From Candidatus Levyibacteriota bacterium (lineage in GTDB: Bacteria; Patescibacteriota; Microgenomatia; Levybacterales; UBA12049): a stretch of DNA of 64,000 bases. A program made the position numbers and the translations under genes. Position 1 is the stretch's first letter. Each line of letters begins with the position of its first letter. A model generated the notes under the pieces. It saw only the letters and a list, made by a program, of their open reading frames with translations. It did no database searches and was not told where the DNA came from. Positions 21,857 to 60,706 of this stretch are shown here, one piece after another. The DNA lies in assembly GCA_003152105.1 (NCBI GenBank), contig PLZJ01000002.1, positions 533,682 to 597,681 of the forward strand. Direction: 5' to 3'.

Positions 21857-21926
21857 CCCCAGAGGAAGTCGAATCCTCGTCTTCAGGATGAGAACCTGAT
21901 GTCCTAGGCCACTAGACGATGGGGCC
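21854..21926 (-). tRNA. tRNA-Glu (anticodon CUC)
   Basis: 73-nt cloverleaf folded by hand. Acceptor GGCCCCA/TGGGGTC, D-loop with GG, anticodon loop TT-CTC-AT, T-arm GAGGA-TTCGACT-TCCTC, discriminator A, no encoded CCA. Overlaps the stop codon of 21137..21856. Confidence 0.85.
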
Positions 21927-24022: not shown

Positions 24023-25576
24023 ATGAAATATCTTAAAAAATATAAAATAGAAATTTGTATTGGTGTATTTTTAACCATACTTTATTTTTTTCTTCGAACT
24101 GTTGCTCTTTCAAGACTTCCTATATTTACCGATGAGGCAATCTACATTCGATGGGCACAAATTGCATTAAGCGACGCAAATTGGCGATTTATTTCATTAA
24201 CAGACGGAAAAGGTCCATTTTTTATCTGGATGATGTTGCCGTTTTTAAAATTTATTCATGATCCTTTAATTGCAGGTCGAATGCTTTCTGTAATTTTTGG
24301 TTTTTTTACACTTATTGGATTATTTTTAACCAGTTTCGAATTATTTAGAAATAAATGGGTGTCATTTTTAACTGCGCTTTTATATGTATTTTTTCCTTAT
24401 GCAATCGTTTATGACCGAATGGCATTATATGATTGTATGGTGGCAACATTTTCTATATGGTCTCTTTACTTTTCAATACTTCTAGCAAGACGCATTAGAC
24501 TTGATATTACATTTACACTTGGAGCAATACTTGGTGCTGGCGTATTAACAAAAGCAAACGCAAGTTTTTCTGCAATACTACTACCGTTTACCTTGTTACT
24601 TTTTCCTTTTAAGGAAAAAAAATCTATACAGCAACTCATAAAATGGGTACTTTTTGCACTTTTTGCATATATCATTTCTCAAATACTTTATAGCGTTTTA
24701 CGGTTATCGCCTTTGTACGGCGTTATCAATATTAAAACATCGACTTTTGTCTATTCGTTTTCAGAACTCTTTCATATGGGTATAGGTATGATGTTTAGTA
24801 TTTTTTACGGGAACTTTTTAGTGCTAATCACATGGTGGTATCAGTATATGGGTATTTCATTTATTTTACTTTTAATCGTTGGACTGGCATTTGGAAATTA
24901 TTGGAAAGAAAAAGCACTGCTATGTATTTATTTTATTGTTCCCTACGTTGCACTTGCTATGTTTGGAAAAATAATATTCCCCCGATTTGTTTTCTTTGCA
25001 GCCATTAATCTTTTACCAATAGTCGCATTTGGTCTTTATTTTAGTATTAATGTTTTCTTAAGAAATCTTGTGAAAGACAAATCTTCTATAGCTAAAAAAT
25101 ATAGCATTATTGTGCTTATTATTTTTTGTTTTCTTCTTTCTAATGCATTTATTTGTTATCAATTTATTTTTAATCCTATTAGTGCACAAATCGCTAGTGG
25201 AGATAGAGGTCAGTATATAGAAAATTGGCCAGCTGGTTGGGGAGTTTCACAAAGTATTGCATATTTTTCCTCCCGTGCACAAAACGGTAAAATTTATATT
25301 GGTACTGAGGGAACGTTTGGTTTAATGCCTGAATCGTATGAAATGTACTTGGTGCACAATAAGAATGTTACGATAAAAGGCATATGGCCTATAGAAAATA
25401 CAATGCCAAAAGAACTTGTCGATTCAGCAGTAAAAGTTCCAACATATGTTGTTTTTTATCAACCTTGTCCCACTTGCTCAAATACAAATGAAGCGCCAAA
25501 ATCCTGGCAATTAATGCAAGTTTTTCAAACTAGTACATTAAATACTAGATTAACTATTTATCAAGTAATACCTTAG
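24023..25576 (+). CDS. ArnT/PMT-like (GT39/GT83-type) GT-C membrane glycosyltransferase
   Basis: First loop PIFTDEAIYIRWAQ (DE motif), then GRMLSVIFG. TGTATAAT at 24008-24015 lies 7 nt before the ATG. The track start 23990 is a GTG. Confidence 0.5.
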   Translation: MKYLKKYKIEICIGVFLTILYFFLRTVALSRLPIFTDEAIYIRWAQIALSDANWRFISLTDGKGPFFIWMMLPFLKFIHDPLIAGRMLSVIFGFFTLIGLFLTSFELFRNKWVSFLTALLYVFFPYAIVYDRMALYDCMVATFSIWSLYFSILLARRIRLDITFTLGAILGAGVLTKANASFSAILLPFTLLLFPFKEKKSIQQLIKWVLFALFAYIISQILYSVLRLSPLYGVINIKTSTFVYSFSELFHMGIGMMFSIFYGNFLVLITWWYQYMGISFILLLIVGLAFGNYWKEKALLCIYFIVPYVALAMFGKIIFPRFVFFAAINLLPIVAFGLYFSINVFLRNLVKDKSSIAKKYSIIVLIIFCFLLSNAFICYQFIFNPISAQIASGDRGQYIENWPAGWGVSQSIAYFSSRAQNGKIYIGTEGTFGLMPESYEMYLVHNKNVTIKGIWPIENTMPKELVDSAVKVPTYVVFYQPCPTCSNTNEAPKSWQLMQVFQTSTLNTRLTIYQVIP

Positions 25577-25587
25577 ACTTTGAGTGT

Positions 25588-27288
25588 ATGGTAAAGAACA
25601 CGTATTTATTCGATAGGTATCATTTATTATTCCTTATAGTTGTATTTCTTTTTGCATTTGTTCTAAGGTTTTATCAACTAGGATCACTTCCTCAAGGGTT
25701 AAGTCAAGACGAGTCAGCAATTGGATATAACGCGTATTCCATTCTCCAAACTTCAAAAGATGAGCATGGTATAACATTGCCATTATATTTTAAGTCATTT
25801 AATGACTTCAAAATGCCCTCTTATATTTATCTTACAGCAATATCTGAAAAAGTCTTTGGATTAAATGAATTTGCGGTTCGTTTTCCTTCTGCGTTATTTG
25901 GATTTCTAAGTGTTATTTTTCTATACCTTCTTGTTTATGAGATTTCAAAGAACAAAAATTTATCTTTACTAACTGCGTTATTTTTAGCGATAAACCCATG
26001 GCAATTATTTTTTTCAAGAACAGCTTATGAAGTAAATGTGGCACTTTCGTTTATCTTAATTGGACTATATCTTTTCATGTTAGGAGTAAGACGTAGAAAT
26101 CAATTACTATTATTTTTTATTGCAATTGTATTTTTTGTATTAGCAATGTACACATATAATGTGACGCGAATAATGTCTCCTCTTATACTTTTGATGTATG
26201 TTTATTTTTATAGAAATAAAATAATCCTACCAAATAGTAAAAAAGTATTTTTAGGTATTTGGTTTTTATTGTTAATCATTCCATTTTTCTTAACGTTTAA
26301 AAATGGATCTGGTTTTTCCAATCAAGAAAATGTTCTCGTTTTTGGGTCAGTCAATCAAGCACAGGCAATAGAATTTAAGAGTTACTTACTCGCCCTTCCA
26401 AAGCCTTTGACATTACTTTTTTTCAATAAAGACGTACTGCTATTTGTTGAATATCTAAAAAATATTATAAATTCATTATCAGTATCTCTTTATTTTGTAT
26501 CAAGCGGAAATGGTGGAAATGCAGGTGTTGGCAATGTTGGACTCTTTTATTTGTTTGATTTACCATTCCTGCTTTTTGGAATTTACCTAACGTGTAAAAG
26601 AAGAATTACCTATTTTTATCCTTTTATTGCATGGATACTTTTAGAAATTATAGTAGTTAGTATAAGTATTGAAGTGCCTCATGCAACTAGAAGTTATACT
26701 ATTTTACTTCCTTTTATACTCTTTTCTGCATTTGGTTGTTATAGCTTACTTGAGATTATTCAAAAATATAAGAAACCGTTTTTGAAAAATATCCTTCTAT
26801 TTCTTGTGATACTCGTTGTCGGTTACTCATTTTTATATTTTATCGTTTCATACACAACACAATTTCAATACAAATATACTTCTTGGTGGAGACCAGAAGA
26901 AAAACCACTTGCGTTATATCTTAAAAATGAACAAGGAAATTACAATTCAATAATAATAGACTCAAGTGCTCCGCTTATTTATACTTCACTACTTTTTTAT
27001 CAAGCATACCCACCTTCTGTTTTTCAAGGTTCTAGTGTCTACCAAAAAGATAGTCTTTTTACCAACATTTCCCGTTTTGGGAAATATAGCCTAGAAACTA
27101 TTGATTGGTCTAAAGATTTACAAATGTCAAACACATTGTTTGTGACCACTGATAAAAATAGCCCACCTGGACTAAGTCCTATTGCAACGTTTAGTTTGCC
27201 TACAAGGCCAGTTGTTTTATCTATTGATAATCAAATTGTTCAATATCCAACAACTGAAAAGATTTTTGAAGTATACAAATCAGAATAA
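25588..27288 (+). CDS. ArnT/PMT-like GT-C glycosyltransferase (family B paralog)
   Basis: QDESAIGYNAYS…DEHG…FAVRFPSALFG…AINPWQLFFSR, shared with 41092, 42847 and 44505. Confidence 0.6.
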   Translation: MVKNTYLFDRYHLLFLIVVFLFAFVLRFYQLGSLPQGLSQDESAIGYNAYSILQTSKDEHGITLPLYFKSFNDFKMPSYIYLTAISEKVFGLNEFAVRFPSALFGFLSVIFLYLLVYEISKNKNLSLLTALFLAINPWQLFFSRTAYEVNVALSFILIGLYLFMLGVRRRNQLLLFFIAIVFFVLAMYTYNVTRIMSPLILLMYVYFYRNKIILPNSKKVFLGIWFLLLIIPFFLTFKNGSGFSNQENVLVFGSVNQAQAIEFKSYLLALPKPLTLLFFNKDVLLFVEYLKNIINSLSVSLYFVSSGNGGNAGVGNVGLFYLFDLPFLLFGIYLTCKRRITYFYPFIAWILLEIIVVSISIEVPHATRSYTILLPFILFSAFGCYSLLEIIQKYKKPFLKNILLFLVILVVGYSFLYFIVSYTTQFQYKYTSWWRPEEKPLALYLKNEQGNYNSIIIDSSAPLIYTSLLFYQAYPPSVFQGSSVYQKDSLFTNISRFGKYSLETIDWSKDLQMSNTLFVTTDKNSPPGLSPIATFSLPTRPVVLSIDNQIVQYPTTEKIFEVYKSE

Positions 27289-30628: not shown

Positions 30629-31331
30629 ATTAAATGAGCTTACGATTTTTTTTCCCTTTTGGAATGAAGAAAAAAATGTTGAAAAAGTTGTTAACACCGC
30701 ACTTTTAATTGCTCCAACTATTGCAAAAAAATTTGAAATCCTAGTTATTGACGATGGATCAACAGATAACACATTAGAAGTTGCAACGAAACTGGCTTCA
30801 AAACAACCGTTTGTTACCATACTCTCTCATGCTCAAAACAGAGGATACGGTGCTGCTTTAAAAGAAGGGTTTGCAAATGCTCAGTATGATTATATTGTTT
30901 TTACTGATGGAGATGACCAGTTTGATTTTTCTCAAGTTACGAAATTTGTTGAAAAAATACATACTGCTGATATTGTCATAGGATTTCGTAGTAGACGCCG
31001 TGATAACATTAGTCGTCACATATTAATGTATATGCTTCGCATATGGGATCAAGTATTATTTGGATTTCATTTTAAAGATATAGATTGTGGATTTAAAATG
31101 TTTAAAAAATCTGCAATTGAACAAATTTCACCACTTCGTTCAGAGGGTGCAATGATCACTACAGAAATTCTTGCAAAATCTAAAAAGAAGAAACAAATAA
31201 TAAAAGAAGTTGAGGTTGATCACTATCCTCGAAAATTTGGCATTCAAAGTGGTGGAGATGTGTATGTAATAGTACGAGCAGTGTTAGAGAGTTTTGTGCT
31301 ATGGTGGGATATACGAAATGGAAGATTTTAG
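30618..31331 (+). CDS. GT2 polyprenyl-phosphate sugar synthase (DPM1/GtrB-like)
   Basis: VIDDGSTDNT, FTDGDDQ, DCGFK. Confidence 0.85.
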   Translation: MANKLNELTIFFPFWNEEKNVEKVVNTALLIAPTIAKKFEILVIDDGSTDNTLEVATKLASKQPFVTILSHAQNRGYGAALKEGFANAQYDYIVFTDGDDQFDFSQVTKFVEKIHTADIVIGFRSRRRDNISRHILMYMLRIWDQVLFGFHFKDIDCGFKMFKKSAIEQISPLRSEGAMITTEILAKSKKKKQIIKEVEVDHYPRKFGIQSGGDVYVIVRAVLESFVLWWDIRNGRF

Positions 31332-32781
31332 TATTGAGTCAGTATCAAAGAAATCATTAACAGGTTTTTTAGCCTTAAGTTCTCGTACCTTCTTTGTTAA
31401 AATTCTAGGACTAATTACCAGTTTTGTTTTAACAATATTTTTAGATAGATCGAGTTATGGCGTTTATTTTATCGCGTCATCAATTGTCGTTTTTTTAGTG
31501 TATTTTCAAGATATTGGACTTGCAGCTTCACTTATTCAAAAAAAAGAAAAACCTACACTTGAGGAACTACGTACAACATTTACCATTCAGCAAATTTTAG
31601 TATTACTCATTATTATTCCGTCCCTTTATTTCTCAAAATATATAGCAAACTTTTATCATTTAAATACATCGGGATTGTATTTACTCGACGCATTGCTCAT
31701 ATCATTTTTTATCTCATCGCTAAAAACAATACCCACAGTACTACTTGAGCGAGATTTGCACTTCCATAAATTAGTATTACCAGATATTGTAGAAAATGTT
31801 TCATATAATTTATTGCTTGTTATCTTTGCAGTAATGGGATTTGGTATAACAAGTTTTACGATTGCAGTAGTTGTCAGAAGCATACTTGGGCTTTTTGTAA
31901 TTTATTATATACAACCATGGGAAATAGGTATATCTTTAAATTTCGAAGTATTTAAGAAATTGGCTTCATTTGGCCTACCGTTTCAAGCAAATAGTTTATT
32001 GGCACTTCTTAAAGATAACTTGGTTAGTTTATTTATTGGAAAACTACTACCATTTGATCAAGTAGGACTTGTTGGGTTTGCACAAAAAATTTCCTATCTT
32101 CCATCTAATCTAATAATGGATAATGTTATCCGTGTAACGTTTCCTTCTTATAGTAGACTGCAGCATGATAAAGCAGGTTTAAAAATTGTAATTGAAAAGT
32201 CGCTTTTTTTAATTGGACTACTCATTTTCCCTCTTGTTGTACTTCTTATTATATTTTCAGGAGACTTTATTAAATATGTTCCTATTGCCCACTATCAAAA
32301 ATGGGCACCGTCAGTTATGTCCATTACATTTTTCTCATTAAATATATTATTTGCATCAATAACAGTTCCATTAACCAATTTCTTAAATGCTATAGGAAAA
32401 GTAAAACTTACGCTCTATGCAATGGTACTTTTGACTATTTTTACCTGGGGTCTTACTCCCTTATTTATCTTTCTTTATGGCTTTAATGGTGTTGCTATTG
32501 CATCTTTTATTGTGGCAGCAAGTTTGATATTAATTCTCCCTTTTGTAAAAAGACAATTAGAATTTTCGTTTGTAAAACCTATTATAAAACCACTTGTTGG
32601 AGCACTTGGACTTTTGGCGCTAGCTTTAACAACGACCATATTTATTAACAGCTTCATGCTCCTTATGTTTGCTGTCTTTTTCTCTGGTTTTGTTTACCTG
32701 TTTATTATGTACATGCTTGCCAAAGATGATATGAAAAGCATTTATTCATTTAGTAGGAATGCAATATTTAAATCAAAATGA
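31318..32781 (+). CDS. Wzx-like oligosaccharide flippase (polysaccharide biosynthesis protein, MOP superfamily)
   Basis: About 12-14 TM helices with PST-family N-terminal pattern (SLTGFLALSSRTFFVKILGLIT…). The track start 31294 is a TTG; first in-frame ATG is 31318. Confidence 0.7.
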   Translation: MEDFSIESVSKKSLTGFLALSSRTFFVKILGLITSFVLTIFLDRSSYGVYFIASSIVVFLVYFQDIGLAASLIQKKEKPTLEELRTTFTIQQILVLLIIIPSLYFSKYIANFYHLNTSGLYLLDALLISFFISSLKTIPTVLLERDLHFHKLVLPDIVENVSYNLLLVIFAVMGFGITSFTIAVVVRSILGLFVIYYIQPWEIGISLNFEVFKKLASFGLPFQANSLLALLKDNLVSLFIGKLLPFDQVGLVGFAQKISYLPSNLIMDNVIRVTFPSYSRLQHDKAGLKIVIEKSLFLIGLLIFPLVVLLIIFSGDFIKYVPIAHYQKWAPSVMSITFFSLNILFASITVPLTNFLNAIGKVKLTLYAMVLLTIFTWGLTPLFIFLYGFNGVAIASFIVAASLILILPFVKRQLEFSFVKPIIKPLVGALGLLALALTTTIFINSFMLLMFAVFFSGFVYLFIMYMLAKDDMKSIYSFSRNAIFKSK

Positions 32782-39422: not shown

Positions 39423-39423
39423 T

Positions 39424-40377
39424 ATGAAAATTAGTATCATTATTCCAAACTATAATGGAGGTCATTTGCTTGCGGTAAATTTACCAAAATTAGTAAGTGC
39501 GGTAAATGCGTATAAAGATGCGGACTTTGAAATAATTATTTCAGATGATGTTTCAACAGATAACTCCGAAGATGTAATCACACGTTTTAAAAAAAATAAC
39601 GAAGAAAACGATATAGCTATTAAAACTAATTTTAATAGAAACATAAAAGATTCGGGATTTTCTAAAAATGTAAATCGAGGAGTTGCAATTTCAACCGGCG
39701 ACATAATACTACTATTAAATTCTGATGTTATTCCAGAAAAAGATTTTCTGCTTTCACTTATTCCACATTTTCAAAAAGTAAAAGTTTTTGCTGTTGCATG
39801 TATGGAAGAAAGTATTGAAGATAAAGAAAAAGATCTAAGAGGAAGAGGTATTGGAAAATGGGAAAAAGGATTTCTTGTGCATAGTGGTGGTGATGTTAAT
39901 GGAGACAAAACGCTTTGGGCAAGTGGAGGAAGTAGTGCGTTTAGAAAAAGTATTTGGCAAGAACTTGGAGGTTTAGATATTCTTTATAATCCGTTTTATT
40001 GGGAAGATATAGATCTTTCATATAGAGCTTGGAAGAGCGGATATGAAGTAGATTTTGAAAAAGATAGCATAGTCAAACATGAGCACGATAAAGGTGCTAT
40101 TCGAAATTCATATAGTAAACAAGAAATTACTTCAATTGCATATCGCAATCAATTTATATTTGTCTGGAAAAATATTACTGATAAGAAATTGCTATTTTCT
40201 CATATCTATTGGCTGCCATATCATTTTGCAATGGCAATAAAATCTAAGAACACCGCACTTTTAAGCGGATTTTTTAATGCTTTTGTTTTACTTCCAAAAA
40301 TTATACAATCTCGACTAAAGACAAAACAAAAGTTTATTCTTAGTGACAAAAAGTTATTAGATCAGTTCCACGTATGA
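39424..40377 (+). CDS. GT2 family glycosyltransferase
   Basis: ISIIIPNYNGG, IISDDVSTDNS, LLNSDV. Confidence 0.8.
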   Translation: MKISIIIPNYNGGHLLAVNLPKLVSAVNAYKDADFEIIISDDVSTDNSEDVITRFKKNNEENDIAIKTNFNRNIKDSGFSKNVNRGVAISTGDIILLLNSDVIPEKDFLLSLIPHFQKVKVFAVACMEESIEDKEKDLRGRGIGKWEKGFLVHSGGDVNGDKTLWASGGSSAFRKSIWQELGGLDILYNPFYWEDIDLSYRAWKSGYEVDFEKDSIVKHEHDKGAIRNSYSKQEITSIAYRNQFIFVWKNITDKKLLFSHIYWLPYHFAMAIKSKNTALLSGFFNAFVLLPKIIQSRLKTKQKFILSDKKLLDQFHV

Positions 40378-41090
40378 AATTATCAATAATAATTCCTGTA
40401 TTTAATGAATCAAAAACAATAAAAGAAGTTGTTAATGATGTTGTTAAGCTTACCATTCCACATGTTGACAAGGAAATAATTATTATTGATGATTGTTCGA
40501 TTGATAATACCGTTTTGGAAGTGAATAAATTGGTAAGTAAAAATAAATCAATACATTTTTATAAGCATGACAGTAATCAGGGGAAAGGAGCCGCAGTTAG
40601 AACAGGTATTTCTCACGCAACTGGGGATTACATTATTATTCAGGATGCGGATTTAGAATATAACCCAGAACAAATTAAAAAATTAGTTGAACCAATTTAT
40701 AACAAAGATGCGATAGTCGTTTTTGGCACAAGATTAAATCGTTTACCAAATCTTACAAAAGATGAAAACCGTCCATTATTTTTGTTCCATTACTTTGGTA
40801 ATCGATTTTTATCACTTATTACGAGCTTACTTTATGGACAGTGGATAACTGATATGGAAACTTGTTACAAACTTTTTCCAAGATCAGCACTTTCAAATAC
40901 GAGACTCAATGCAAAGGGATTTGCATTTGAACCGGAAATTACAGCAAAATTACTTAAGAATGGATATAAAATAATGGAAATTCCTATAACTACGACTCCA
41001 AGAGGATACGATGAAGGAAAAAAATTAAATGCTGCAAAAGAAGGCCCTTTGGCTCTTTGGACGTTACTAAAATACAGATTCGTTAACTAA
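40374..41090 (+). CDS. GT2 polyprenyl-phosphate sugar synthase (DPM1/GtrB-like)
   Basis: LSIIIPVFNE, IIIDDCSIDNT, IQDADLEY, ETCYKLF. Confidence 0.85.
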   Translation: MKLSIIIPVFNESKTIKEVVNDVVKLTIPHVDKEIIIIDDCSIDNTVLEVNKLVSKNKSIHFYKHDSNQGKGAAVRTGISHATGDYIIIQDADLEYNPEQIKKLVEPIYNKDAIVVFGTRLNRLPNLTKDENRPLFLFHYFGNRFLSLITSLLYGQWITDMETCYKLFPRSALSNTRLNAKGFAFEPEITAKLLKNGYKIMEIPITTTPRGYDEGKKLNAAKEGPLALWTLLKYRFVN

Positions 41091-41091
41091 T

Positions 41092-42789
41092 ATGAAAAAT
41101 AAGATTGTTCTTATTTTATTATTTTTGATTGTTTCTTTTGCCGCATTTCTCAGATTTTATTCTATATCTAATGTGCCTGTATCACTATATTGGGATGAAG
41201 CTGCAATTGGATATAATGCATACTCAATTTCGCAGACTGGAAAAGATGAATATGGCACTTTTATGCCTATTTTGTTTAGATCCTTTGACGATTATAAAAC
41301 ATCGGGTAATATATATTTAACATCTCTTTCTGTGTTGTTGTTTGGTTTAAGTGAATTTGCTGTACGATTTCCTTCTGCACTATTTGGAACTCTGACAGTT
41401 CTTATTTTTTACTTCCTTATTGTTGAGTTATTTTCTTATGCGCCACAAGTAATTACAATAGGAAAAAGAGAAATCCCAATTAATAGTCGAGTTTTATCGT
41501 TAATTTCCACCTTTATGTTAGCCATTTCCCCATGGCATATACAATTTTCTCGCAGTGGATTTGAAGCAAACATAGCGTTATTTTTTCAAGTACTTGGCAT
41601 ATATGCATTATTACTTAGTTTACGAAAGGATAGGTTTAATTTTTTTATTTCTATACCTCTTATTGCATTTTCTTTTTATATTTACAGAAGTATATGGCTT
41701 ACGATGCCACTTTTTCTACTTTCCTTTATTAGTATTTTTAAATATGACCTACTTAGAAAAATTTACCTTAATAAAATAATAATTGGGTTAGTATTATTTA
41801 TGGTACTTCTTATCCCACTTTTTTATACCGTATTTTCTGGAGGAGGCTTAACTAGAGGAAATCAAGTAAGTATTTTTTCAAACGTAACCAATTTTGACTC
41901 ATATGCACATAGCATATCGCAATCATCTTCAAATGTAGTATCTAAAAAACTATTTTCAAATACCTACTCTATTAAGATTATGGAATTTGCACTAAATTAT
42001 TATTCCAATTTTTCTCCCGATTTTCTCTTTTTTAATGGTGATGGTAATCCTAGACAAGGACCAAGAGATATGGGGTTATTATATGTTTGGGAAATTCCGT
42101 TTTTCTTACTTGGTATTTTAGGAACATTTTTTCTCCCAAGAAAAATTAAATATTTTATTATTACATGGATTTTAATTGCACCAATTCCGGCTGCACTTTC
42201 TATACCAAATCCACATGCTCTGCGTAGTTTGTTTGCTATTCCAATGCTTACTTTTTTTACCGGCTTTGGAATTTATATTGTATCCCGGTGGATAAAAAAA
42301 AGAAGCTTTCAAGCTTCATTTGCTGTTTTATTGACAGAGTTTATTATCTATTTTTTTGTGCGGTATCTTTCTTTGTATTATGTTATAGGACCGCAAACTA
42401 CAAGTAGCGCTTGGGCAGACGGATATAAGCAGTTAGTTTCCTATACAACGACACATAAAGCTAACTATAATAAAATAATAATATCAGGACATTATTGGCA
42501 ACCATATATTTATTTTCTTTTTTATACAAAATATAATCCAGTACTATACCAAAAATACGGAACCAAAAGAGGGTTTGATAAATATTTATTTGGTGGAACG
42601 AGTTGGGATCAAAATGAATATAGTCAAGAACTTGGAAATATAAATCTTAGAAAATTTGCTCATGCAGATAAAGTACTAGTCGCATTGTCTCCGCAAGAAT
42701 ATGCTACACAAGCAAATAACATACAAAAGTTAACTGAAATTAGAGATCATGATAATAATCTAGTGTTTATTGTTGGAAACTTAAAATAA
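41092..42789 (+). CDS. ArnT/PMT-like GT-C glycosyltransferase (family B, tandem copy 1)
   Basis: LYWDEAAIGYNAYS…DEYG…FAVRFPSALFG…AISPWHIQFSR. Confidence 0.6.
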   Translation: MKNKIVLILLFLIVSFAAFLRFYSISNVPVSLYWDEAAIGYNAYSISQTGKDEYGTFMPILFRSFDDYKTSGNIYLTSLSVLLFGLSEFAVRFPSALFGTLTVLIFYFLIVELFSYAPQVITIGKREIPINSRVLSLISTFMLAISPWHIQFSRSGFEANIALFFQVLGIYALLLSLRKDRFNFFISIPLIAFSFYIYRSIWLTMPLFLLSFISIFKYDLLRKIYLNKIIIGLVLFMVLLIPLFYTVFSGGGLTRGNQVSIFSNVTNFDSYAHSISQSSSNVVSKKLFSNTYSIKIMEFALNYYSNFSPDFLFFNGDGNPRQGPRDMGLLYVWEIPFFLLGILGTFFLPRKIKYFIITWILIAPIPAALSIPNPHALRSLFAIPMLTFFTGFGIYIVSRWIKKRSFQASFAVLLTEFIIYFFVRYLSLYYVIGPQTTSSAWADGYKQLVSYTTTHKANYNKIIISGHYWQPYIYFLFYTKYNPVLYQKYGTKRGFDKYLFGGTSWDQNEYSQELGNINLRKFAHADKVLVALSPQEYATQANNIQKLTEIRDHDNNLVFIVGNLK

Positions 42790-42846
42790 TTTTTGCGCTT
42801 TAAGACTAGATTACTTGAGTTTTTTATTATAAAGTATAGAGGTTAT

Positions 42847-44508
42847 ATGAATTCTTTTAGTAAAATAATATCAAAGTGGTATGTAATGCTTTTTGCAATC
42901 GTACTTATCGCTGCCTTTCTTAGGTTTTATCAATTAGGTATAAATCCTCCAGCTCTTACATGGGATGAGGCTGCTTGGGGATATAACGCATACGCACTCG
43001 GAGCTGATGCGAGAGACGAATTTGGAAGGTTTATGCCGCATGATTATCTTGAGTCTTTTGGTGATTTTAAACCTCCAATGTATGCATACCTTACAATTGT
43101 TCCTGTTAAGCTAATTGGCTTAAATGAATTTGCAACTCGTTTTCCGTCTGCGTTTTTTGGACTTCTGACTGTTATTATGAGTTATTTTCTCGTCAAGCAA
43201 ATTTTTTATAAATCTGCACATAAGAATAAATATGCACTGCTTACTGCGTTCTTACTTGCGATATCCCCGTGGCATATAATGCTTTCAAGAGCTGCATTTG
43301 AAGCTAATGTCGCCACTTTTTTTACTGTATGCGGAGTGTGGCTGTATCTAAAGGCAATGCATGAAAATATGTGGTACTTGTCTGTCTCTGCAATTTTTTT
43401 TGTCGCATCAGTATATACATTCAATACCCCTCGTTTAGCTGCCCCAATACTTATCGTACTTCTTTCGCTACTTTTTATTAAAAAGCTACTTAAAAATAAA
43501 AAGCAGGCAATAGTTGCCTGTATTATAGGAATAGCGCTTTTACTCCCAACATTTTCTTTTTTGCTTTCTCCTCAAGCAGCTCTTAGATATGATGAAGTTA
43601 ATATCTTCTCAGATCTAAATGTTATAAAAGTTATCAATCAAGAAGTTGCAAATGATCATAATTCAAAATTGTCAAAAATAATTCATAACAGAAGAATTGT
43701 TTTTAGTGTAGATTTTCTCCAACATTATTTTGATGAATTTAATTTTAACTTTTTGTTTATAAATGGTGATCCAAATCCTAAATTTTCAAGTCAGGATGTT
43801 GGCGAGATGTATTTTGCTTATATACCGTTTTTTCTTCTTGGTATACTGCTACTTATTCGAAGAAAGGAAAGTAATTGGTGGCTTGTATTTCTTTGGCTGC
43901 TTGTTGGTCTTATTCCAGCATCAACTTCTCAACAAACGCCACATGCGTTACGAATAGAATTTGTAATTCCTATGTTTGAGATTATTGTTGCATACGGAAT
44001 TATCCAATGTTATCTCTATTTATCTGGTATTTCAAAAAAAAATAAACTTCCACTTTTTTTTACTTCATGTATATTTTTATTTGTGTTAGCGTTAAATGTC
44101 ACTAAATTTATTCACGGATATTATACTTTTTATCCAAAAGATTTTTCGCAGGAATGGCAATATGGTTATAAGCAATCAATTGCATATGTTGCAAGCGTCC
44201 AAGGAAATTATGACCAAATAAATATAACAGATTCATTAGGAAGGCCCTATATTTATTACTTATTCTATCTTAAAACTCCTCCATCTGAATTTAGGAAAAC
44301 TGCATATATTTCTAGAGATACATTTGGATTTGTCCATGTTCTAAGTTTTGATAAATATTATTTTGGTAGTAATCTATCTAGTATTGCAAGCAAAAATCAA
44401 TCTAATCTATATATTGATATTCCAATGAATGTACCTAAAAATGCGCATGTTTTAAAAACATTTTATAATCTAGACAAAACACCTGCACTTGTTGCGTATA
44501 TAATATGA
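42847..44508 (+). CDS. ArnT/PMT-like GT-C glycosyltransferase (family B, tandem copy 2)
   Basis: LTWDEAAWGYNAYA…DEFG…FATRFPSAFFG…AISPWHIMLSR. AGAGG SD 6 nt before ATG 42847. The track start 42793 is a TTG. Confidence 0.6.
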   Translation: MNSFSKIISKWYVMLFAIVLIAAFLRFYQLGINPPALTWDEAAWGYNAYALGADARDEFGRFMPHDYLESFGDFKPPMYAYLTIVPVKLIGLNEFATRFPSAFFGLLTVIMSYFLVKQIFYKSAHKNKYALLTAFLLAISPWHIMLSRAAFEANVATFFTVCGVWLYLKAMHENMWYLSVSAIFFVASVYTFNTPRLAAPILIVLLSLLFIKKLLKNKKQAIVACIIGIALLLPTFSFLLSPQAALRYDEVNIFSDLNVIKVINQEVANDHNSKLSKIIHNRRIVFSVDFLQHYFDEFNFNFLFINGDPNPKFSSQDVGEMYFAYIPFFLLGILLLIRRKESNWWLVFLWLLVGLIPASTSQQTPHALRIEFVIPMFEIIVAYGIIQCYLYLSGISKKNKLPLFFTSCIFLFVLALNVTKFIHGYYTFYPKDFSQEWQYGYKQSIAYVASVQGNYDQINITDSLGRPYIYYLFYLKTPPSEFRKTAYISRDTFGFVHVLSFDKYYFGSNLSSIASKNQSNLYIDIPMNVPKNAHVLKTFYNLDKTPALVAYII

Positions 44509-46145
44509 AGATTAAACACACATTATTATTTTTATTGTTAATTTTGCTTTTAGCTGCGGGTTTGCGTTTATATAATTTATCAGGAGTACCTTCGTCGGTT
44601 GATTGGGATGAAGCAGCACACGGTTATAATGCGTATTCAATAATGTTAACGGGTCGAGATGAATATAGTGCTCCATTTCCTGTTGTACTAAAATCTTTCG
44701 GAGACTACAAACCAGCTTTATATACATACTTAACTATGCCAGCAATTGCCTTTTTTGATTTAAATGCGTTTTCAGTTAGACTACCATCTGCATTAATTGG
44801 AATACTTGCAGTATTTTTAACTTTCCTTTTTGTTATGGAACTATTCAAGAATGAAAAACTCGCTTTACTTTCTTCCTTATTTCTTGCAATATCCCCGTGG
44901 CACATACAGTTTACACACGTCGCATTTGAGGCTAGTGTTGGTATGGCATTTGTACTTGCAATGGCTTTGTTTTTTCTCAAGGGACTTCGTAGTCCCATAC
45001 TTCTTAGTGTTTCTGCGTTTTTTGCTGGCATAACAATTTATGCATATCAAAGTGAAAAAGTGTTTGTTCCTTTACTTCTTTTATTACTCATTGTTATTTA
45101 TAGGAAAGAACTATTTAAAGTTGCAAAAAGATATTTACTGCTAGCATGTATCGTTGGAATAATTGTTGCAACTCCTATGGCTATATATTTGTTTGCAAAT
45201 AGTTCTTCTCTTGCAAGATTACAACAGGTAAGTGCATTTTCTAGTTCAAATCCAATTAGACAAGAAAACTTAGAAAAGAGTTCTAAAAGATTACTTGTGG
45301 ATCAACAAAATAGCGATTTTGTAGGAAAACTGGTTGATAATAGACGCTATGATTATCTCTCTACTGTAGTTGGTAATTACTTTTCTCATCTGAGTCTTAA
45401 TTGGCTTTTTATTGAAGGAGATAGTGTGCTACGCCATCAGCCACCAAACATGGGGCATCTATACTTATGGGATTTACCATTTCTGTTTATTGGTTTCTAC
45501 ATCCTTATTTTTGGTAAGTATGAACGTAAAACAAAATATTTACTAATTGGTTGGTTACTTTTGACCCCAATACCTGCCTCTATTACTACCGAAGTACCAC
45601 ATGCAGTTCGAACAATTCATTTTCTACCAATTCTGCAAATACTGATTGCAATTGGATTTAGTTATTTCTTAGTTATTATACATAAGACAAAAGGACTTCA
45701 TAAAAACGTTCCTTATGTACTGCTTGGAATATCACTTTTTGTTCTCCTTTTTAACTTTATATACTTTTTAGATCAGTATTTCGTACAACAAAATTACTAT
45801 CATTCAGAGGATTGGCAATATGGCAGCCAAGAGGCTGTTTCTTATGTAAATCAAAATTCGAATAAATATAAAAACATTATAGTTGATTCAAAAGTAACCT
45901 ATATTTTTTTCCTCTTTTATGGGAAATATTCACCAGCTTTTTATCAATCAATTCCTAATAATGATAACCATGATTTTAGTAACGTCAAGTTTGTGAATTC
46001 ACTTGAATGGAATGGTCAAGAAGTAAAAGATCATGATTTATATGTTGGATTAAGTGGCGATGTATTTCCACTTAATACACATGTGATAAAAACTATTAAT
46101 TATCTTGATGGATCTCCAGCAATTTATTTTTACGAACCGAAATAA
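44505..46145 (+). CDS. ArnT/PMT-like GT-C glycosyltransferase (family B, tandem copy 3)
   Basis: VDWDEAAHGYNAYS…DEYS…FSVRLPSALIG…AISPWHIQFTH. ATGA overlap with copy 2. Confidence 0.6.
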   Translation: MKIKHTLLFLLLILLLAAGLRLYNLSGVPSSVDWDEAAHGYNAYSIMLTGRDEYSAPFPVVLKSFGDYKPALYTYLTMPAIAFFDLNAFSVRLPSALIGILAVFLTFLFVMELFKNEKLALLSSLFLAISPWHIQFTHVAFEASVGMAFVLAMALFFLKGLRSPILLSVSAFFAGITIYAYQSEKVFVPLLLLLLIVIYRKELFKVAKRYLLLACIVGIIVATPMAIYLFANSSSLARLQQVSAFSSSNPIRQENLEKSSKRLLVDQQNSDFVGKLVDNRRYDYLSTVVGNYFSHLSLNWLFIEGDSVLRHQPPNMGHLYLWDLPFLFIGFYILIFGKYERKTKYLLIGWLLLTPIPASITTEVPHAVRTIHFLPILQILIAIGFSYFLVIIHKTKGLHKNVPYVLLGISLFVLLFNFIYFLDQYFVQQNYYHSEDWQYGSQEAVSYVNQNSNKYKNIIVDSKVTYIFFLFYGKYSPAFYQSIPNNDNHDFSNVKFVNSLEWNGQEVKDHDLYVGLSGDVFPLNTHVIKTINYLDGSPAIYFYEPK

Positions 46146-46191: not shown

Positions 46192-47955
46192 ATGCATGGG
46201 CTATTCCATAAGAGCTATAACAGCGTTAAGCATGGAACTTGGAAATGGGTGCTTTTCTTCATTTTCGTTTATAGCTTATTTTTTGTAAATTCTTTCCACG
46301 AAAAGTATACAGATGAATTTGATAACGTCCTTGGAGGATCATATATTCTTCATGGAAGACTTCCCTATAATGGATTTTTTAGTCATCATGGCCCATTAGC
46401 ATATTTTGTTTCTGCATTTATACAAATATTTAGCGGACATTCATTTGTTCATTTTAGAGTTGCGTACGGATTATTCTTATTCCTTATGACAATGGGTGTG
46501 TATTTCTATTTTAGATGTAGATTCAGTGAATATACAGCACGAATATATCTTGCCTTTATGGTACTTTTAGGAATTTCTGCATCCTATTATTGGGGACACA
46601 TGCTTATTGCTGATAGTCTTGCAGGATTTTTCTTATCATATGTTTTTTCATTTTTTCTGTTTCAAAATCTCTTAAGTATTAAAATAACCACTCGGGATAT
46701 TATATTTATCTCACTTTTTACTTCTCTTGCGTTACTTACTGCATTAACCTACATATATCTCTGTTTATTTATTTATCTTTATGTACTTGTTCTTATTTTT
46801 TCTACGCACAAAGGATTAGGTAAATCAAATATCGTTTTTAAAACAATGCTAATATGTGGGACTCCATATATACTATTTTTACTATACTTATTGTTTACTG
46901 GAAGCTTTTCCAACTATTTATATCAATCGGTAATATTTAATCAAAAATATTATATCTATTTTCAAGGAGTATCTGGCGCGCCCAAAAATCCAATTCGACA
47001 AATAATAATTATTGCTTATAATTTTTACCAAAACTTTTTTACTTTACTAGTGCAAGCGAAAGAATTAAATTTTTCATCTCCTTTTAATATTACACTAGCG
47101 ATAACAAATGTAACACTTCTTATTTATTTATTTTTACAAAAAAGATATAAATTATTACTTTTTATACTTTTATTTATTACATATGCAAATGCAAGATCTA
47201 ATCCCTTAGATTCAAGAGAAACTGATTATCAATCTGCTGTATATATTACTGCAACCCTTTTTTCAATGTGTTACGTGCTTTACTTGTTAACGAAATCACT
47301 AAGTAGCCATTTAGATGAGGTAAGAAAGTCAGTTTATCTATTGCTATTTTTGTTAACTGGTACTTACTGTTTTTTTACAACAGGTTTTTTACTATCTAAA
47401 TTTGCGTCAAAAGCTTACACTAAATATATGGGAATGGCTCCTTTGATATACGATACATCCTCAATTGCTCCTCTTATTAATACGTTGGCTTCAAAAGATG
47501 ATTATGCTTGGATAGGTCCTTTAAATTTTGATGACCTATATTATATGCAAGCTAAATTACCATCTAAATATCACATACTTATTCCAGGAATGGGTAAATC
47601 AGCTGTTATACAACAAGATATGCTCAGTGAATTTTCAAAAAATAAGCCAAAAGTTATGTATTTTGATAAAAATTTCTTTATATTAGGTAGTAGCCCAAAC
47701 CAATTTGCTCAATTTTTTATTAGTTTTGTTTCAGCAAATTATATAACGCTTGGAACATATAACAGCAATGAAGTTAAATATACGCAAATAAATTCATCTA
47801 CTAATGTAGATATTATAAACAATCTTTATATTAATAAAGATACTGTCCCAGAAGTTATTAATTTACTTGAGAAAAATAATTATATTAAAGAAGAGCAAGT
47901 TCAAAAACCTCAATTAGTAACTGTGGCTAGAAGGCCTCTTACGACTCATTACTAA
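46192..47955 (+). CDS. Polytopic membrane protein, family D paralog
   Basis: DEFDNVLGGSYILHG…HHGPLAYFVSAFIQ. About 12 TM helices plus a C-terminal soluble domain. Confidence 0.45.
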   Translation: MHGLFHKSYNSVKHGTWKWVLFFIFVYSLFFVNSFHEKYTDEFDNVLGGSYILHGRLPYNGFFSHHGPLAYFVSAFIQIFSGHSFVHFRVAYGLFLFLMTMGVYFYFRCRFSEYTARIYLAFMVLLGISASYYWGHMLIADSLAGFFLSYVFSFFLFQNLLSIKITTRDIIFISLFTSLALLTALTYIYLCLFIYLYVLVLIFSTHKGLGKSNIVFKTMLICGTPYILFLLYLLFTGSFSNYLYQSVIFNQKYYIYFQGVSGAPKNPIRQIIIIAYNFYQNFFTLLVQAKELNFSSPFNITLAITNVTLLIYLFLQKRYKLLLFILLFITYANARSNPLDSRETDYQSAVYITATLFSMCYVLYLLTKSLSSHLDEVRKSVYLLLFLLTGTYCFFTTGFLLSKFASKAYTKYMGMAPLIYDTSSIAPLINTLASKDDYAWIGPLNFDDLYYMQAKLPSKYHILIPGMGKSAVIQQDMLSEFSKNKPKVMYFDKNFFILGSSPNQFAQFFISFVSANYITLGTYNSNEVKYTQINSSTNVDIINNLYINKDTVPEVINLLEKNNYIKEEQVQKPQLVTVARRPLTTHY

Positions 47956-47961
47956 TTTATA

Positions 47962-49458
47962 ATGACTATTTTATCTCATATGCCATACAAAAGGCATTTA
48001 TCAAAAATTCATTTCTTACCGCTACATACCATTTTTCTTATTTGTATAATCATTGCCTCGTTTTACTTTCGATTTTATAATACGCCAAATCGTTATGGGT
48101 TTGATCCAGATCCTGTAAGAGATGCTTTAACAATTTATCAAGGAGCAACTCATTTTCAATTTCCTCTAACTGGAGCAATGTCAGGTATTGCACCATTTAC
48201 TTTTGGACCTTGGTATTATTATCAACTTATTCTTTTTCAAATACTTTTCCCACTTAACTATGCCCCTTGGATATTTATAGGACTTTCTTCAGTGCTTGCT
48301 GTATTTGTAATGTATAAGATTGGAAGTAGCCTTGAAAATAAATGGTTTGGACTAATGCTTGCTTTATTTATGGCACTTAGTCCTTCAGAAACAGGACAAA
48401 CGCAGGGACTTAGTAATCCTGATTTAGTACCTTTATATACTACGCTTATCATATGGATTTTTATAATGCTTATGAAAAAGAATACAGCAAGTTGGTGGCT
48501 TCTGATTTGGGGAGTTGTATTTGGCATTGGTATAAATATTCATTATCAGATTATTTTATTATTACCACTTTTTCTTTTTTATCTCTATTTCAACTCATCT
48601 CACATACTCAAAAAGAGCATACATTTCTTCCTAGGACTTGGCATTACATTTATACCCCTTTTGCTGTTTAATTTATTTACAAATTGGCATACAGTACGTG
48701 GTGTTTTATATTATGTCACGATAGGAAGAGCTACAACGTATATTCCAAATAGCTGGAAAATTTATTTATTCTCATTTTGGTTACCGTATCTATCATATAT
48801 ATTTGGATTAACAAATTTAAATCAAATTATCTTATTTTTTCTTTCAATTATGGGATTAGTTTACGCCTCATTTATTAAAAAACTACATCGAATATATCTT
48901 ATTTTTATACTTACTTTTATATTGGATTTTTTTATCTTAAGATATTTTCTAGCAAATCGTGATTATTATTACTACTTATTTCTTCACCCAATTATTTTTA
49001 TTTTAGTTGGTTTCGCTCTTTGGCAACTTAGAACTTTTAGATTTGGTAAAGTTGCAATTTTGTTTATATTATTTTTTATTATTATTGGAATGATTCCGCA
49101 AGATCAACAAAGATTAGTGTCTCGGGTTGATAATATTGGAATGAGCAATCAAGCAGAGTTTTTAATGAATAAATTTCCAAATCGACCAATTAGCATTTAT
49201 GCATGCTCGAATAATAGAGTAGTAAATCTAGCAGAAGGTATAGTATTTTTTCTTAAAAATAATCATAGATTAGGTATGGGTGAGGGAACAAAAATAGCTA
49301 TTATTAATAACGACTGCAAGACAACTCTTTCAGGATTTGCTAAATATGAAGAATATTCAGAAGTTGAACTTACTAATGATTTAGCTTTGGTAAATCAAAA
49401 GAAACTTATGCTCATAACCCCAAAAGAAATATACAATGCAAATGTATCGTGGTGGTAA
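47962..49458 (+). CDS. Polytopic membrane protein, family A paralog (putative GT-C)
   Basis: FDPDPVRDALTIYQG…PLTGAMSGIAPFTFGPWYYYQ. Confidence 0.5.
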   Translation: MTILSHMPYKRHLSKIHFLPLHTIFLICIIIASFYFRFYNTPNRYGFDPDPVRDALTIYQGATHFQFPLTGAMSGIAPFTFGPWYYYQLILFQILFPLNYAPWIFIGLSSVLAVFVMYKIGSSLENKWFGLMLALFMALSPSETGQTQGLSNPDLVPLYTTLIIWIFIMLMKKNTASWWLLIWGVVFGIGINIHYQIILLLPLFLFYLYFNSSHILKKSIHFFLGLGITFIPLLLFNLFTNWHTVRGVLYYVTIGRATTYIPNSWKIYLFSFWLPYLSYIFGLTNLNQIILFFLSIMGLVYASFIKKLHRIYLIFILTFILDFFILRYFLANRDYYYYLFLHPIIFILVGFALWQLRTFRFGKVAILFILFFIIIGMIPQDQQRLVSRVDNIGMSNQAEFLMNKFPNRPISIYACSNNRVVNLAEGIVFFLKNNHRLGMGEGTKIAIINNDCKTTLSGFAKYEEYSEVELTNDLALVNQKKLMLITPKEIYNANVSWW

Positions 49459-49514: not shown

Positions 49515-50276
49515 ATGAAACATACTATTTCATTTGTAACTTCAACTTATAATGAAGAAAATAACTTAGCAGCCTGTTTAGAATCTGTAAAAGATATAGT
49601 TGACGAAATTATTGTAGTTGATGGTTCTTCAACTGATAACACAGTAAAAATCGCTAAGGAATACGGTGCAAAAGTTGTTATAACTACAAATCCTCCCATA
49701 TTTTTAATAAACAGACAAAAGGCAATTGATCTTGCAACAAAAGATTGGCTTCTAAATTTAGATGCAGATGAAAGATTAACTCCAGATCTCGCAAGTGAAA
49801 TTAAAAACGAATTAGATAAAAAAAATGATGAGATTAATGGGTATTATATGCCTCGAAAAAATTGGTATTTAGGTCGATATTTAATGAAAGGGGGAGTTTA
49901 TCCTGATTATCAATTACGATTATATAAAAGGGGTAAAGTTCATTTCGCATTAAAAGATGTACATGAACAGGCAATCGTAGAAGGGGAAACCGGATATTTA
50001 CATAAAGCGATAAATCATATTTCAGACCCTGTATTTAAAAGATATTTACTTCGATTCAATAGATATACTGATCGAATGGCTGATGAATTTAAAGATGCTC
50101 ATCTTGGAAAAAATCCTTTAATTTTTTTACAGCATGTACTAATAAAGCCTATATATACGTTTTTTATGACATATATTAGACATAAAGGTTTTATGGATGG
50201 TTGGCAAGGATTTGTTTTTCATTTTTATTCTTCTTTGAGATATTCAATAGCTTATATAAAATATCTACGTTCATGA
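49515..50276 (+). CDS. GT2 family glycosyltransferase (family E paralog of 35272)
   Basis: ISFVTSTYNEE, IIVVDGSSTDNT, NLDADERL, YYMPRKNWYLGRY. Confidence 0.75.
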   Translation: MKHTISFVTSTYNEENNLAACLESVKDIVDEIIVVDGSSTDNTVKIAKEYGAKVVITTNPPIFLINRQKAIDLATKDWLLNLDADERLTPDLASEIKNELDKKNDEINGYYMPRKNWYLGRYLMKGGVYPDYQLRLYKRGKVHFALKDVHEQAIVEGETGYLHKAINHISDPVFKRYLLRFNRYTDRMADEFKDAHLGKNPLIFLQHVLIKPIYTFFMTYIRHKGFMDGWQGFVFHFYSSLRYSIAYIKYLRS

Positions 50277-59716: not shown

Positions 59717-59723
59717 TATACTG

Positions 59724-60704: not shown

Positions 60705-60706
60705 CT

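Follow-up and report, generated by a model that had tools for sequence, protein, structure and literature searches.

The window analysed here, a 64,000-nucleotide stretch of contig PLZJ01000002.1 from a Candidatus Levyibacteriota bacterium, contains three consecutive genes on the forward strand (41092-42789, 42847-44508 and 44505-46145, referred to as copies 1, 2 and 3 and encoding 565, 553 and 546 amino acids) whose products are members of the GT-C glycosyltransferase superfamily (class A fold) and of the Pfam family PMT_2. Their triplication is ancient and has been retained. On balance, the three proteins are likely to be catalytically intact, anciently diverged and non-redundant glycosyltransferases of the patescibacterial cell envelope, each of which would transfer a sugar from a lipid carrier to an acceptor outside the membrane, and the conserved 40-kb cluster to which they belong is probably responsible for assembling a surface glycan on the outer side of the cell membrane.

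Gene structure, family and fold

From 22.0 kb to the end of the window, which has a G+C content of about 31%, all genes are on the forward strand and packed tightly. Copy 1 starts 1 nt after the stop codon of a glycosyltransferase family 2 (GT2) gene and is followed by a 57-nt spacer, in which a Shine-Dalgarno-like AGAGG stands ahead of the ATG of copy 2. The longest mechanical open reading frame (ORF) of copy 2 opens at a TTG codon (42793), but the ATG at 42847 is preferred because of the AGAGG upstream of it, because the resulting length matches that of the orthologs, and because an independent gene call in ENA agrees. A first-pass annotation, made without database searches, had described the three genes as translationally coupled in series: copies 2 and 3 do share an ATGA at 44505-44508, an overlap read directly from the sequence, but since 57 nt part copies 1 and 2, coupling by overlap is limited to the 2/3 junction. 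A scan for promoters and terminators gave results at chance level, and the evidence for an operon is limited to gene spacing.

The same annotation was accurate as to the ORFs (546-565 amino acids) and as to the loop motifs it quoted, which recur with variants in every copy: WDEAAxGYNAY and AISPWHI are found in all three, one further motif reads DEYG, DEFG and DEYS in copies 1, 2 and 3, respectively, and another reads RFPSALFG, RFPSAFFG and RLPSALIG. The proteins are 33-35% identical to each other, with pairwise BLASTP E values of 1e-66 to 3e-84, far past chance. Their genes are 49-50% identical overall and 67-69% identical in the best 90-nt windows, bearing out the strong nucleotide divergence first reported, and their third codon positions, at about 41-43% identity, are saturated. 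Recent duplication and collapse or artefact of assembly, of which near-identity would be the sign, are ruled out by these values (about 50% for DNA, 33-35% for protein), and decay into pseudogenes is ruled out by the intact frames and motifs of all three copies, the acidic DE motif included.

The only Pfam glycosyltransferase families matched by the three proteins are PMT_2 (PF13231, gathering cut-off 26.1 bits) and PMT (PF02366, 22.7 bits). Copies 2 and 3 score over the PMT_2 cut-off (41.6 and 34.7 bits) and copy 1 falls just under it (25.7 bits), being tied to the others by BLAST (E 1e-66 to 1e-84); copy 1 also has a weak SPW match, far under the cut-off. The PMT model is matched above its cut-off by copy 2 (56.0 bits), just below it by copy 3 (21.2 bits), and not at all by copy 1. 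A dispersed fourth paralog of 566 amino acids, encoded at 25588..27288 on the forward strand, matches both families (45.6 bits for PMT_2, 31.9 bits for PMT) and is 29-34% identical to copies 1-3 (E 1e-55 to 1e-74), with closer relatives of its own at up to 47% identity. No NCBIfam model has its cut-off reached by copies 1-3. The proteins are not ArnT proper, since they fall short of the ArnT equivalog model NF009784 (cut-off 567 bits) by more than 500 bits, with 19.3 bits for copy 3, 17.5 bits for the 25588 protein and no match for copies 1 and 2. Neither are they of the Emb/Aft type (GT53 and relatives), as no copy matches an arabinosyltransferase family of Pfam. They are also not demonstrably PMT enzymes, because only one of three copies passes the PMT cut-off and the PMT-specific modules are absent, neither the PMT_4TMC module nor the MIR domain being matched in Pfam by any copy.

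The AlphaFold2 model of copy 1, for which 123 homologs were aligned, has a predicted local distance difference test score (pLDDT) of 95.5 and a predicted TM-score (pTM) of 0.94. When it was compared with the PDB by Foldseek, all 18 matches at E <= 1e-3 were GT-C enzymes with a probability of 1.00; STT3, ArnT, AglB, PglB, Pmt4, Pmt1/2, ALG9, Emb and AftD are among the structural matches, at 8-16% identity. ArnT gave the highest target-normalised TM-score (0.56-0.57, identity 11-12%), and ArnT and STT3 together span about 0.5-0.57, whereas the PMTs overlap partially (0.28-0.47) and the Emb chains match over the transmembrane (TM) core only (TMq 0.34-0.38, 10-11% identity). By sequence, ArnT was the sole PDB match (E = 9e-4 with a 5-sequence profile), which became weaker with the deeper 123-sequence profile (E = 0.066). 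Thus the initial description of the genes as ArnT/PMT-like GT-C enzymes is right at the level of the superfamily, on the strength of Pfam and of the Foldseek matches of copy 1, with no ArnT equivalog among them. A search with a profile of the four paralogs shows how large the family is: of 1.84 billion cluster representatives, 5,636 are matched at E <= 1e-30 and 29,632 at E <= 1e-3. Existing database labels for these proteins and their homologs are 'glycosyltransferase family 39' and 'ArnT-like' ('L-Ara4N transferase-like' at JGI). A literature search found no paper analysing GT-C arrays in the Candidate Phyla Radiation (CPR); one genome paper on Microgenomates goes no further than a count of 29 glycosyltransferases (PMC7143001).

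The helices of the model and the positive-inside rule together predict a cytoplasmic N-terminus and about 11 TM helices, with Lys and Arg making up 18 of 72 residues in the predicted inner loops versus 3 of 47 in the short outer loops. The predicted outer parts include a long external loop 1 (EL1, residues 23-87), a long EL4 (residues 249-331) and a C-terminal alpha/beta domain (residues 437-565 in copy 1; 114-129 amino acids among the copies). Relative to the other paralogs, copy 1 is longer by about 16 residues at positions 117-131 (window 41440-41487); the model folds this insertion into a beta-hairpin within a predicted cytoplasmic loop, and the alignment of copy 1 orthologs shows no consensus there.

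Among 172 family members, 24 positions are at least 95% conserved (R21, P29, D35, E36, Y41, T49, D52, P59, K69, Y75, G85, R92, G99, P147, W148, S153, R154, E158, P206, G328, G341, P374, R378 and P483), and all of them are kept in copies 1-3, the polar ones lying nearly all in predicted outer loops. The D35-E36 pair follows the first TM helix on the predicted outer face and corresponds to the acidic motif in the first loop of GT-C enzymes. K69 lines up in a hidden Markov model (HMM) alignment with the Lys of the 'EKPP' motif of ArnT (K85), which contacts the phosphate of the undecaprenyl lipid carrier (PMC7801869), and R378 lies in a short loop ahead of the helix at residues 380-400 of the copy 1 model, the position of an Arg just ahead of TM10 that is a conserved phosphate ligand across GT-Cs (PMC7801869); by analogy with that work, K69 and R378 may have the same roles here. 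Identity among copies 1-3 and the 25588 protein is unevenly distributed, at 48% in EL1, 35% in TM helices 2-7, 26% in EL4 and 26% in the C-terminal domain, and family-wide conservation is 0.66 in EL1 versus 0.39 in EL4 and 0.35 in the C-terminal domain. With EL1 conserved and EL4 and the C-terminal domain diverged, the donor or catalytic side appears to have been kept and the putative acceptor side to have diverged.

Age and conservation of the tandem array

Five other genomes were compared with the window: L002 (GCA_027459745.1), L003/L004, L009, L010 (Ca. Levybacteria GW2011_GWA2_36_13) and L011. In every one there is a block consisting of a GT4 gene, a YfhO gene (about 750 amino acids), a GT2 gene (about 315 amino acids), a second GT2 gene (about 238 amino acids) and then PMT_2 paralogs, and the order from the second GT2 gene through copies 1, 2 and 3 is kept in all five. 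The upstream part of the block, which in the window runs forward from 36112 to 40377 and comprises, by Pfam, a GT4 gene (36112-37173), a YfhO-family GT-C gene of 750 amino acids (37170-39422) and a GT2 gene of 317 amino acids (39424-40377), has the same order in L002, L003, L009, L010 and L011 at 43-54% identity. Each genome has 3-5 PMT_2 genes; L002, L009 and L011 contain inserted additional copies, and in L003 genes on the reverse strand break up the array. The 238-amino-acid GT2 gene is directly beside copy 1 in four of the six genomes and no more than 2 kb away in all six. The orthologous tandem arrays in relatives that the first-pass annotation proposed to look for are therefore present.

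Each copy is closer to its positional orthologs than to its neighbours. Copy 1 is 51% identical to L002_6480 and 50% identical to L003_10001, copy 2 is 57% identical to L002_9893 and 41% to L003_14956, and copy 3 is 46% identical to L002_11548 and 36% to L003_16550; overall, positional orthologs share 36-57% identity with scores of 328-646 bits, versus 31-34% identity and at most 278 bits for paralogs within a genome. In 199, 196 and 173 of 200 bootstrap replicates of neighbour-joining trees, copies 1, 2 and 3, respectively, cluster with their positional orthologs apart from the other copies; this positional-ortholog test replaced the bootstrap of maximal clades, which was unstable (0-51%). 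The 150 best representatives of the family fall into four sets, each nearest to one paralog of the window. Because the copies group with their positional orthologs and five other genomes carry the block, the triplication is ancient and retained, as had been proposed from the divergence of the copies.

The same set of PMT_2, YfhO, GT2 and GT4 genes is also carried by contigs of three metagenome-assembled genomes (L006, L007 and L008, 25-38% G+C) that are titled 'uncultured Gammaproteobacteria bacterium'; this title probably misnames the organism, and a patescibacterial origin of the contigs is likely.

A possible pathway and its alternatives

The gene adjoining copy 1 (40374..41090, forward strand; Pfam Glycos_transf_2, 132 bits) encodes a soluble GT2 of 238 amino acids that is a candidate polyprenyl-phosphate-sugar synthase, and no gene of the block is better conserved (54-64% identity to its counterparts in the other genomes). 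Its best relative of solved structure is the dolichol-phosphate-mannose synthase (DPMS) of Pyrococcus (5mlz, E = 2.4e-16 over residues 1-216, the entire catalytic domain), followed by ArnC and GtrB. The near full-length NCBIfam matches are solely to polyprenyl-phosphate glycosyltransferases (AglJ, PpgS and a dolichol-phosphate hexose transferase), and models of GT2 enzymes that polymerise or act on oligosaccharides match its N-terminal half only. Both its activity and its sugar are thus assigned here from sequence likeness. Three short GT2 paralogs are encoded at 22026, 30618 and 56674, and a short soluble DPMS-like GT2 followed by a run of GT-C-like genes is a recurring pattern in the cluster. 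Candidates for the translocase of a lipid-linked sugar are a Wzx/MOP-type flippase at 31318..32781 (forward strand; Polysacc_synt_3, 162 bits; models of MOP flippases and of an O-glycosylation flippase match under their cut-offs) and a second Wzx/MOP-type protein at 55419-56690 (forward strand).

Multi-component transmembrane glycosylation systems consist of a GT-A enzyme that makes a sugar linked to undecaprenyl phosphate (C55-P), a flippase that is GtrA-type or sometimes Wzx-type, and a GT-C enzyme that has a DxD-like motif in an outer loop and transfers the sugar to an extracytoplasmic acceptor (PMC8035078). Copies 1-3 may function most like the GT-C component of such systems. Beyond the fold, motif conservation, topology, duplication age and synteny described above, we infer a donor, its flipping, an acceptor and a division of labour as follows. 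On the inner side of the membrane, the GT2 of 40374-41090 would use a nucleotide sugar to load a hexose onto polyprenyl phosphate, and the lipid-linked sugar would be flipped, possibly by one of the two Wzx-type proteins of the cluster. In each GT-C, an active site formed by EL1, EL2 and EL5, with D35 and E36 as the catalytic acid pair and K69 and R378 holding the lipid phosphate, would then transfer the sugar onto an acceptor outside the membrane. The machinery on the donor side would be common to the paralogs, and their differing EL4 loops and C-terminal domains would probably direct them to different positions, linkages or acceptors. Distinct specificities, preferred over gene dosage in the first-pass annotation as well, are a reasonable inference and fit the 26% identity of EL4 and the C-terminal domain versus 48% in the catalytic loop EL1. 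Most likely, each paralog would catalyse one in a series of steps by which a single surface glycoconjugate is built or decorated, and about 12 other GT-C-like enzymes would contribute to it, as would the cytoplasmic GT2 and GT4 enzymes encoded in the 40-kb cluster, much as the Emb, Aft and Mpt enzymes of mycobacteria work in succession.

Several observations weigh against this scheme. Positions that strictly part the three ortholog groups, as expected of residues that set specificity, number only five, so that the signal for functional divergence in the sequences is modest. Every match of the 40374 GT2 to a polyprenyl-phosphate glycosyltransferase model is below the equivalog cut-off, and the protein has no hydrophobic segment or membrane anchor and no visible small partner protein. 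No GtrA-type flippase is encoded in the window, and no ORF of GtrA size fits in the packed cluster. The acceptor cannot be read from family membership: depending on the species, YfhO-type GT-Cs glycosylate either teichoic acids or the Ser/Thr-rich tails of proteins (PMC12041528). Finally, PMT and Emb paralogs heterodimerise (6p25, 7bvf), and by analogy the copies might form one complex rather than catalyse independent steps.

The precedent of GT2 and GT-C pairs that glycosylate proteins in monoderm bacteria (PMC12041528) raises the possibility, which we consider unlikely but the most serious of the competing explanations, that the paralogs act like PMT or PgtC2 as protein O-glycosyltransferases, each modifying Ser/Thr residues of different secreted or surface proteins (for example S-layer proteins, pilins or the disordered tails of membrane proteins) with the polyprenyl-phosphate sugar made by the adjacent GT2. 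The scores of copy 2 (56 bits) and of the 25588 protein above the Pfam PMT cut-off and the presence of Pmt4 and Pmt1/2 among the structural matches agree with this, but the structural likeness to PMTs is lower and more partial than that to ArnT and STT3 (TM-scores of 0.28-0.47 versus about 0.5-0.57), the copies are without the PMT-specific C-terminal module or a MIR domain, the neighbouring genes (Wzx, GT4, GT2, YfhO and the heptose pathway) resemble those of polymer assembly, and the window encodes no candidate Ser/Thr-rich acceptor. The paralogs could otherwise be obligate partners in a single hetero-oligomeric enzyme, like Pmt1-Pmt2 or EmbA-EmbB, possibly with unequal catalytic roles. Such an arrangement would explain the conserved adjacency and close spacing of the genes, including the overlap of copies 2 and 3 and the 1-2-3 order kept in five other genomes, and the best-known pairs of paralogous GT-Cs are indeed heterodimers (6p25 for Pmt1-Pmt2, 7bvf for EmbA-EmbB). 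It is nevertheless improbable, given that copy number varies from three to five in relatives with insertions between the copies (extra copies in three of the genomes), and that the full catalytic set is present in all copies, so that none resembles a non-catalytic scaffold.

The structural matches bear also on a role like that of ArnT in modifying a membrane lipid or glycolipid with a head-group sugar, with consequences for surface charge or resistance: ArnT is the best full-length target-normalised match (0.56-0.57) and the sole PDB match by sequence, and JGI names homologs 'L-Ara4N transferase-like'. Set against this are the score of at most 19.3 bits against an equivalog cut-off of 567, the identity of 11-12%, and the lack of ArnA, ArnB or ArnD genes among the scanned ORFs of at least 150 amino acids in the window; to our knowledge, Patescibacteria are monoderm and have no lipid A, which also counts against it, and the chance that it is correct seems very small. 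Slighter still is the prospect that the copies are redundant or in decay and that chance or dosage explains their retention, a reading for which nothing speaks beyond their being paralogs and which is contradicted by the present data, namely the 33-35% protein identity with saturated third codon positions, the intact frames of ortholog length with conserved catalytic residues, and the retention of one-to-one orthologs across genomes that have diverged to 36-57% identity. Both of these last two explanations are poorly supported.

The copies have partial counterparts in several known systems. ArnT of Cupriavidus metallidurans (GT83; 5ezm/5f15) has the same GT-C class A fold with a polytopic N-terminal module and an extracytoplasmic C-terminal alpha/beta domain, an acidic motif in the first outer loop, and an undecaprenyl-phosphate-binding Lys with which a Lys of EL1 here is aligned; it differs in having 13 TM helices versus about 11 in the copy 1 model, and no genes of its 4-amino-4-deoxy-L-arabinose (Ara4N) pathway are among the scanned ORFs of the window. 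The PMTs (GT39; Pmt1/2, Pmt4 and the actinobacterial Pmt) belong to the same Pfam clan as PMT_2, possess a DE motif in loop 1, occur as retained families of paralogs that dimerise, and use a polyprenyl-phosphate-hexose donor from a DPMS-type GT2, as the window proteins are presumed to do; unlike them, these copies have neither MIR domain nor PMT_4TMC module, overlap PMT structures partially, and pass the PMT cut-off in one case out of three.

The comparison with EmbA/B/C and the PMT families that the first-pass annotation had drawn seems apt as an analogy, and the tandem set recalls embCAB in particular. Like embCAB and the Aft and Mpt genes, the array consists of tandem, anciently duplicated GT-C paralogs that would have non-redundant roles in linkage or acceptor choice, and the likeness may extend to the use of polyprenyl-phosphate-monosaccharide donors outside the membrane, to a wall polysaccharide as product and to the large number of GT-Cs in one pathway. 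Structural matches in the cluster include Emb, AftA and AftD, and the product of the gene at 22784 is weakly MptA/MptB-like. The differences are the lack of an Arabinose_trans match, the length of 550 amino acids versus about 1,050-1,100 for Emb, the lack of a recognised carbohydrate-binding module, the unrelated phylum, and the presence of a putative donor synthase gene beside those of the transferases. The three-component systems of Firmicutes (CsbB/GtrB with GtcA and YfhO/GtlB; GacI/J with GacK and GacL) follow the same logic of GT2, flippase and GT-C, and the Gac system likewise has a soluble GT-A enzyme and a Wzx-type flippase (PMC8035078). In the window, by contrast, one GT2 is followed by an array of paralogous GT-Cs (3-5 among the genomes compared) rather than one, there is no GtrA-type flippase or small GacJ-like partner, and these GT-Cs are PMT_2-type and not YfhO-type, although YfhO-type genes share the cluster.

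The surrounding cluster and its significance

The expansion of tandem PMT_2-type genes is real but fairly ordinary and not surprising; more interesting are the scale and conservation of the surrounding cluster and a GT-C family for which Pfam has no model. The first-pass annotation had counted two further dispersed copies, of which one, at 25588, is the true fourth member described above, and the other, at 24023..25576 (forward strand), encodes a distant GT-C of the PMT_2 family (39 bits) that is 18-21% identical to the others, keeping the DE pair of the first loop but lacking the remaining family motifs. This was an undercount, for the interval from 14.5 to 53.3 kb encodes about 15 polytopic proteins that are GT-C-like. 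Besides the PMT_2 paralogs they comprise YfhO-type proteins (at 27292, 28943 and 37170), the protein at 22784 with its weak match to MptA/MptB, and two groups represented by the next two genes after copy 3.

The first of these genes (46192..47955, forward strand) encodes a protein of 587 amino acids that matches no Pfam or NCBIfam model. Its family has 235 detected homologs, of which the few that are named are all called 'hypothetical protein'. The AlphaFold2 model has a pLDDT of 90, and its Foldseek matches at E <= 0.01 are only to GT-C enzymes (ArnT, STT3, Pmt4, AftA, ALG12 and DPY19); directly past the first TM helix there is an invariant D41-E42 pair. A comparison of the family with the profile of the PMT_2 paralogs by hhalign was negative (11% probability), and because this profile-profile comparison fails, the GT-C fold is visible only by structure prediction. 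According to the models, then, the 46192 protein represents a separate GT-C family that is unrecognisable by sequence. Its homolog is usually the next gene after the block: it is found right behind the triplet in L002, L003 and L010, and elsewhere in L009. A paralog or relative within the window, detected by BLAST, is encoded at 33713-35275 (forward strand).

The second gene (47962..49458, forward strand) encodes a PMT_2-type GT-C of 498 amino acids (43.3 bits) that belongs to a second subfamily and has an ortholog in L002 (L002_16456, 46% identity). BLAST and HMM links identify paralogs of it at 14550, 50273 and 51748. On the forward strand it is followed by a GT2 gene (49515-50276, assigned by Pfam), whose L010 ortholog is 58% identical, and by two genes for GT-C-like proteins, at 50273-51751 (local HMMs place 50201/50273 in the 47962 subfamily) and at 51748-53334 (same subfamily).

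The rest of the cluster consists of the two Wzx-type flippases, GT4 and GT2 enzymes, GalE, an ADP-heptose pathway and a GT9 heptosyltransferase. The genes for the ADP-L-glycero-D-manno-heptose pathway and the GT9 heptosyltransferase lie at 57423-61768, in a Patescibacterium that is presumably monoderm and devoid of lipopolysaccharide. Two of them are unusual fusions, one of an HldE-type kinase with a cupin domain (57423) and the other of an adenylyltransferase with a GmhB phosphatase (58715); HldD (59724) scores 401 bits against a cut-off of 274.6, and no GmhA-type isomerase was seen in the window. The upstream edge of the cluster, which starts at 22026, is marked by a tRNA-Glu(CTC) gene (21853-21926, reverse strand), the sole RNA gene found in the window. 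Just upstream, at 17468-19468 on the reverse strand, is a gene for an Acyl_transf_3 membrane protein of 666 amino acids, a candidate glycan O-acyltransferase, and an Acyl_transf_3 gene also sits within the PMT_2 array of L003/L004.

More than 40 kb of a genome of about 1.15 Mb is thus given to a conserved cluster dominated by GT-C enzymes that are predicted to depend on lipid carriers, and within it the triplet, with a probable donor synthase adjoining, probably forms a non-redundant sub-module that was fixed long ago. The D35/E36 pair, the pairing of GT2 with GT-C and the new GT-C family at 46192 are offered as targets for further study. We suggest tentatively, as a possibility less likely than the mechanism proposed for the triplet itself, that the triplet is the core of a glycan assembly line outside the membrane that is conserved in Levybacteria and Microgenomates, in which about 15 GT-C enzymes (including the 46192/33713 family), four DPMS-like GT2s and an ADP-heptose branch would build a complex envelope polymer from polyprenyl-phosphate monosaccharides. 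Such a polymer would be a functional analogue, in an ultrasmall bacterium, of the arabinogalactan and lipoarabinomannan of mycobacteria. Patescibacteria are thought to live attached to other cells, which makes it likely that their surface glycans play a part in recognising hosts, and this polymer could be the principal structure on the surface by which they attach to the host.

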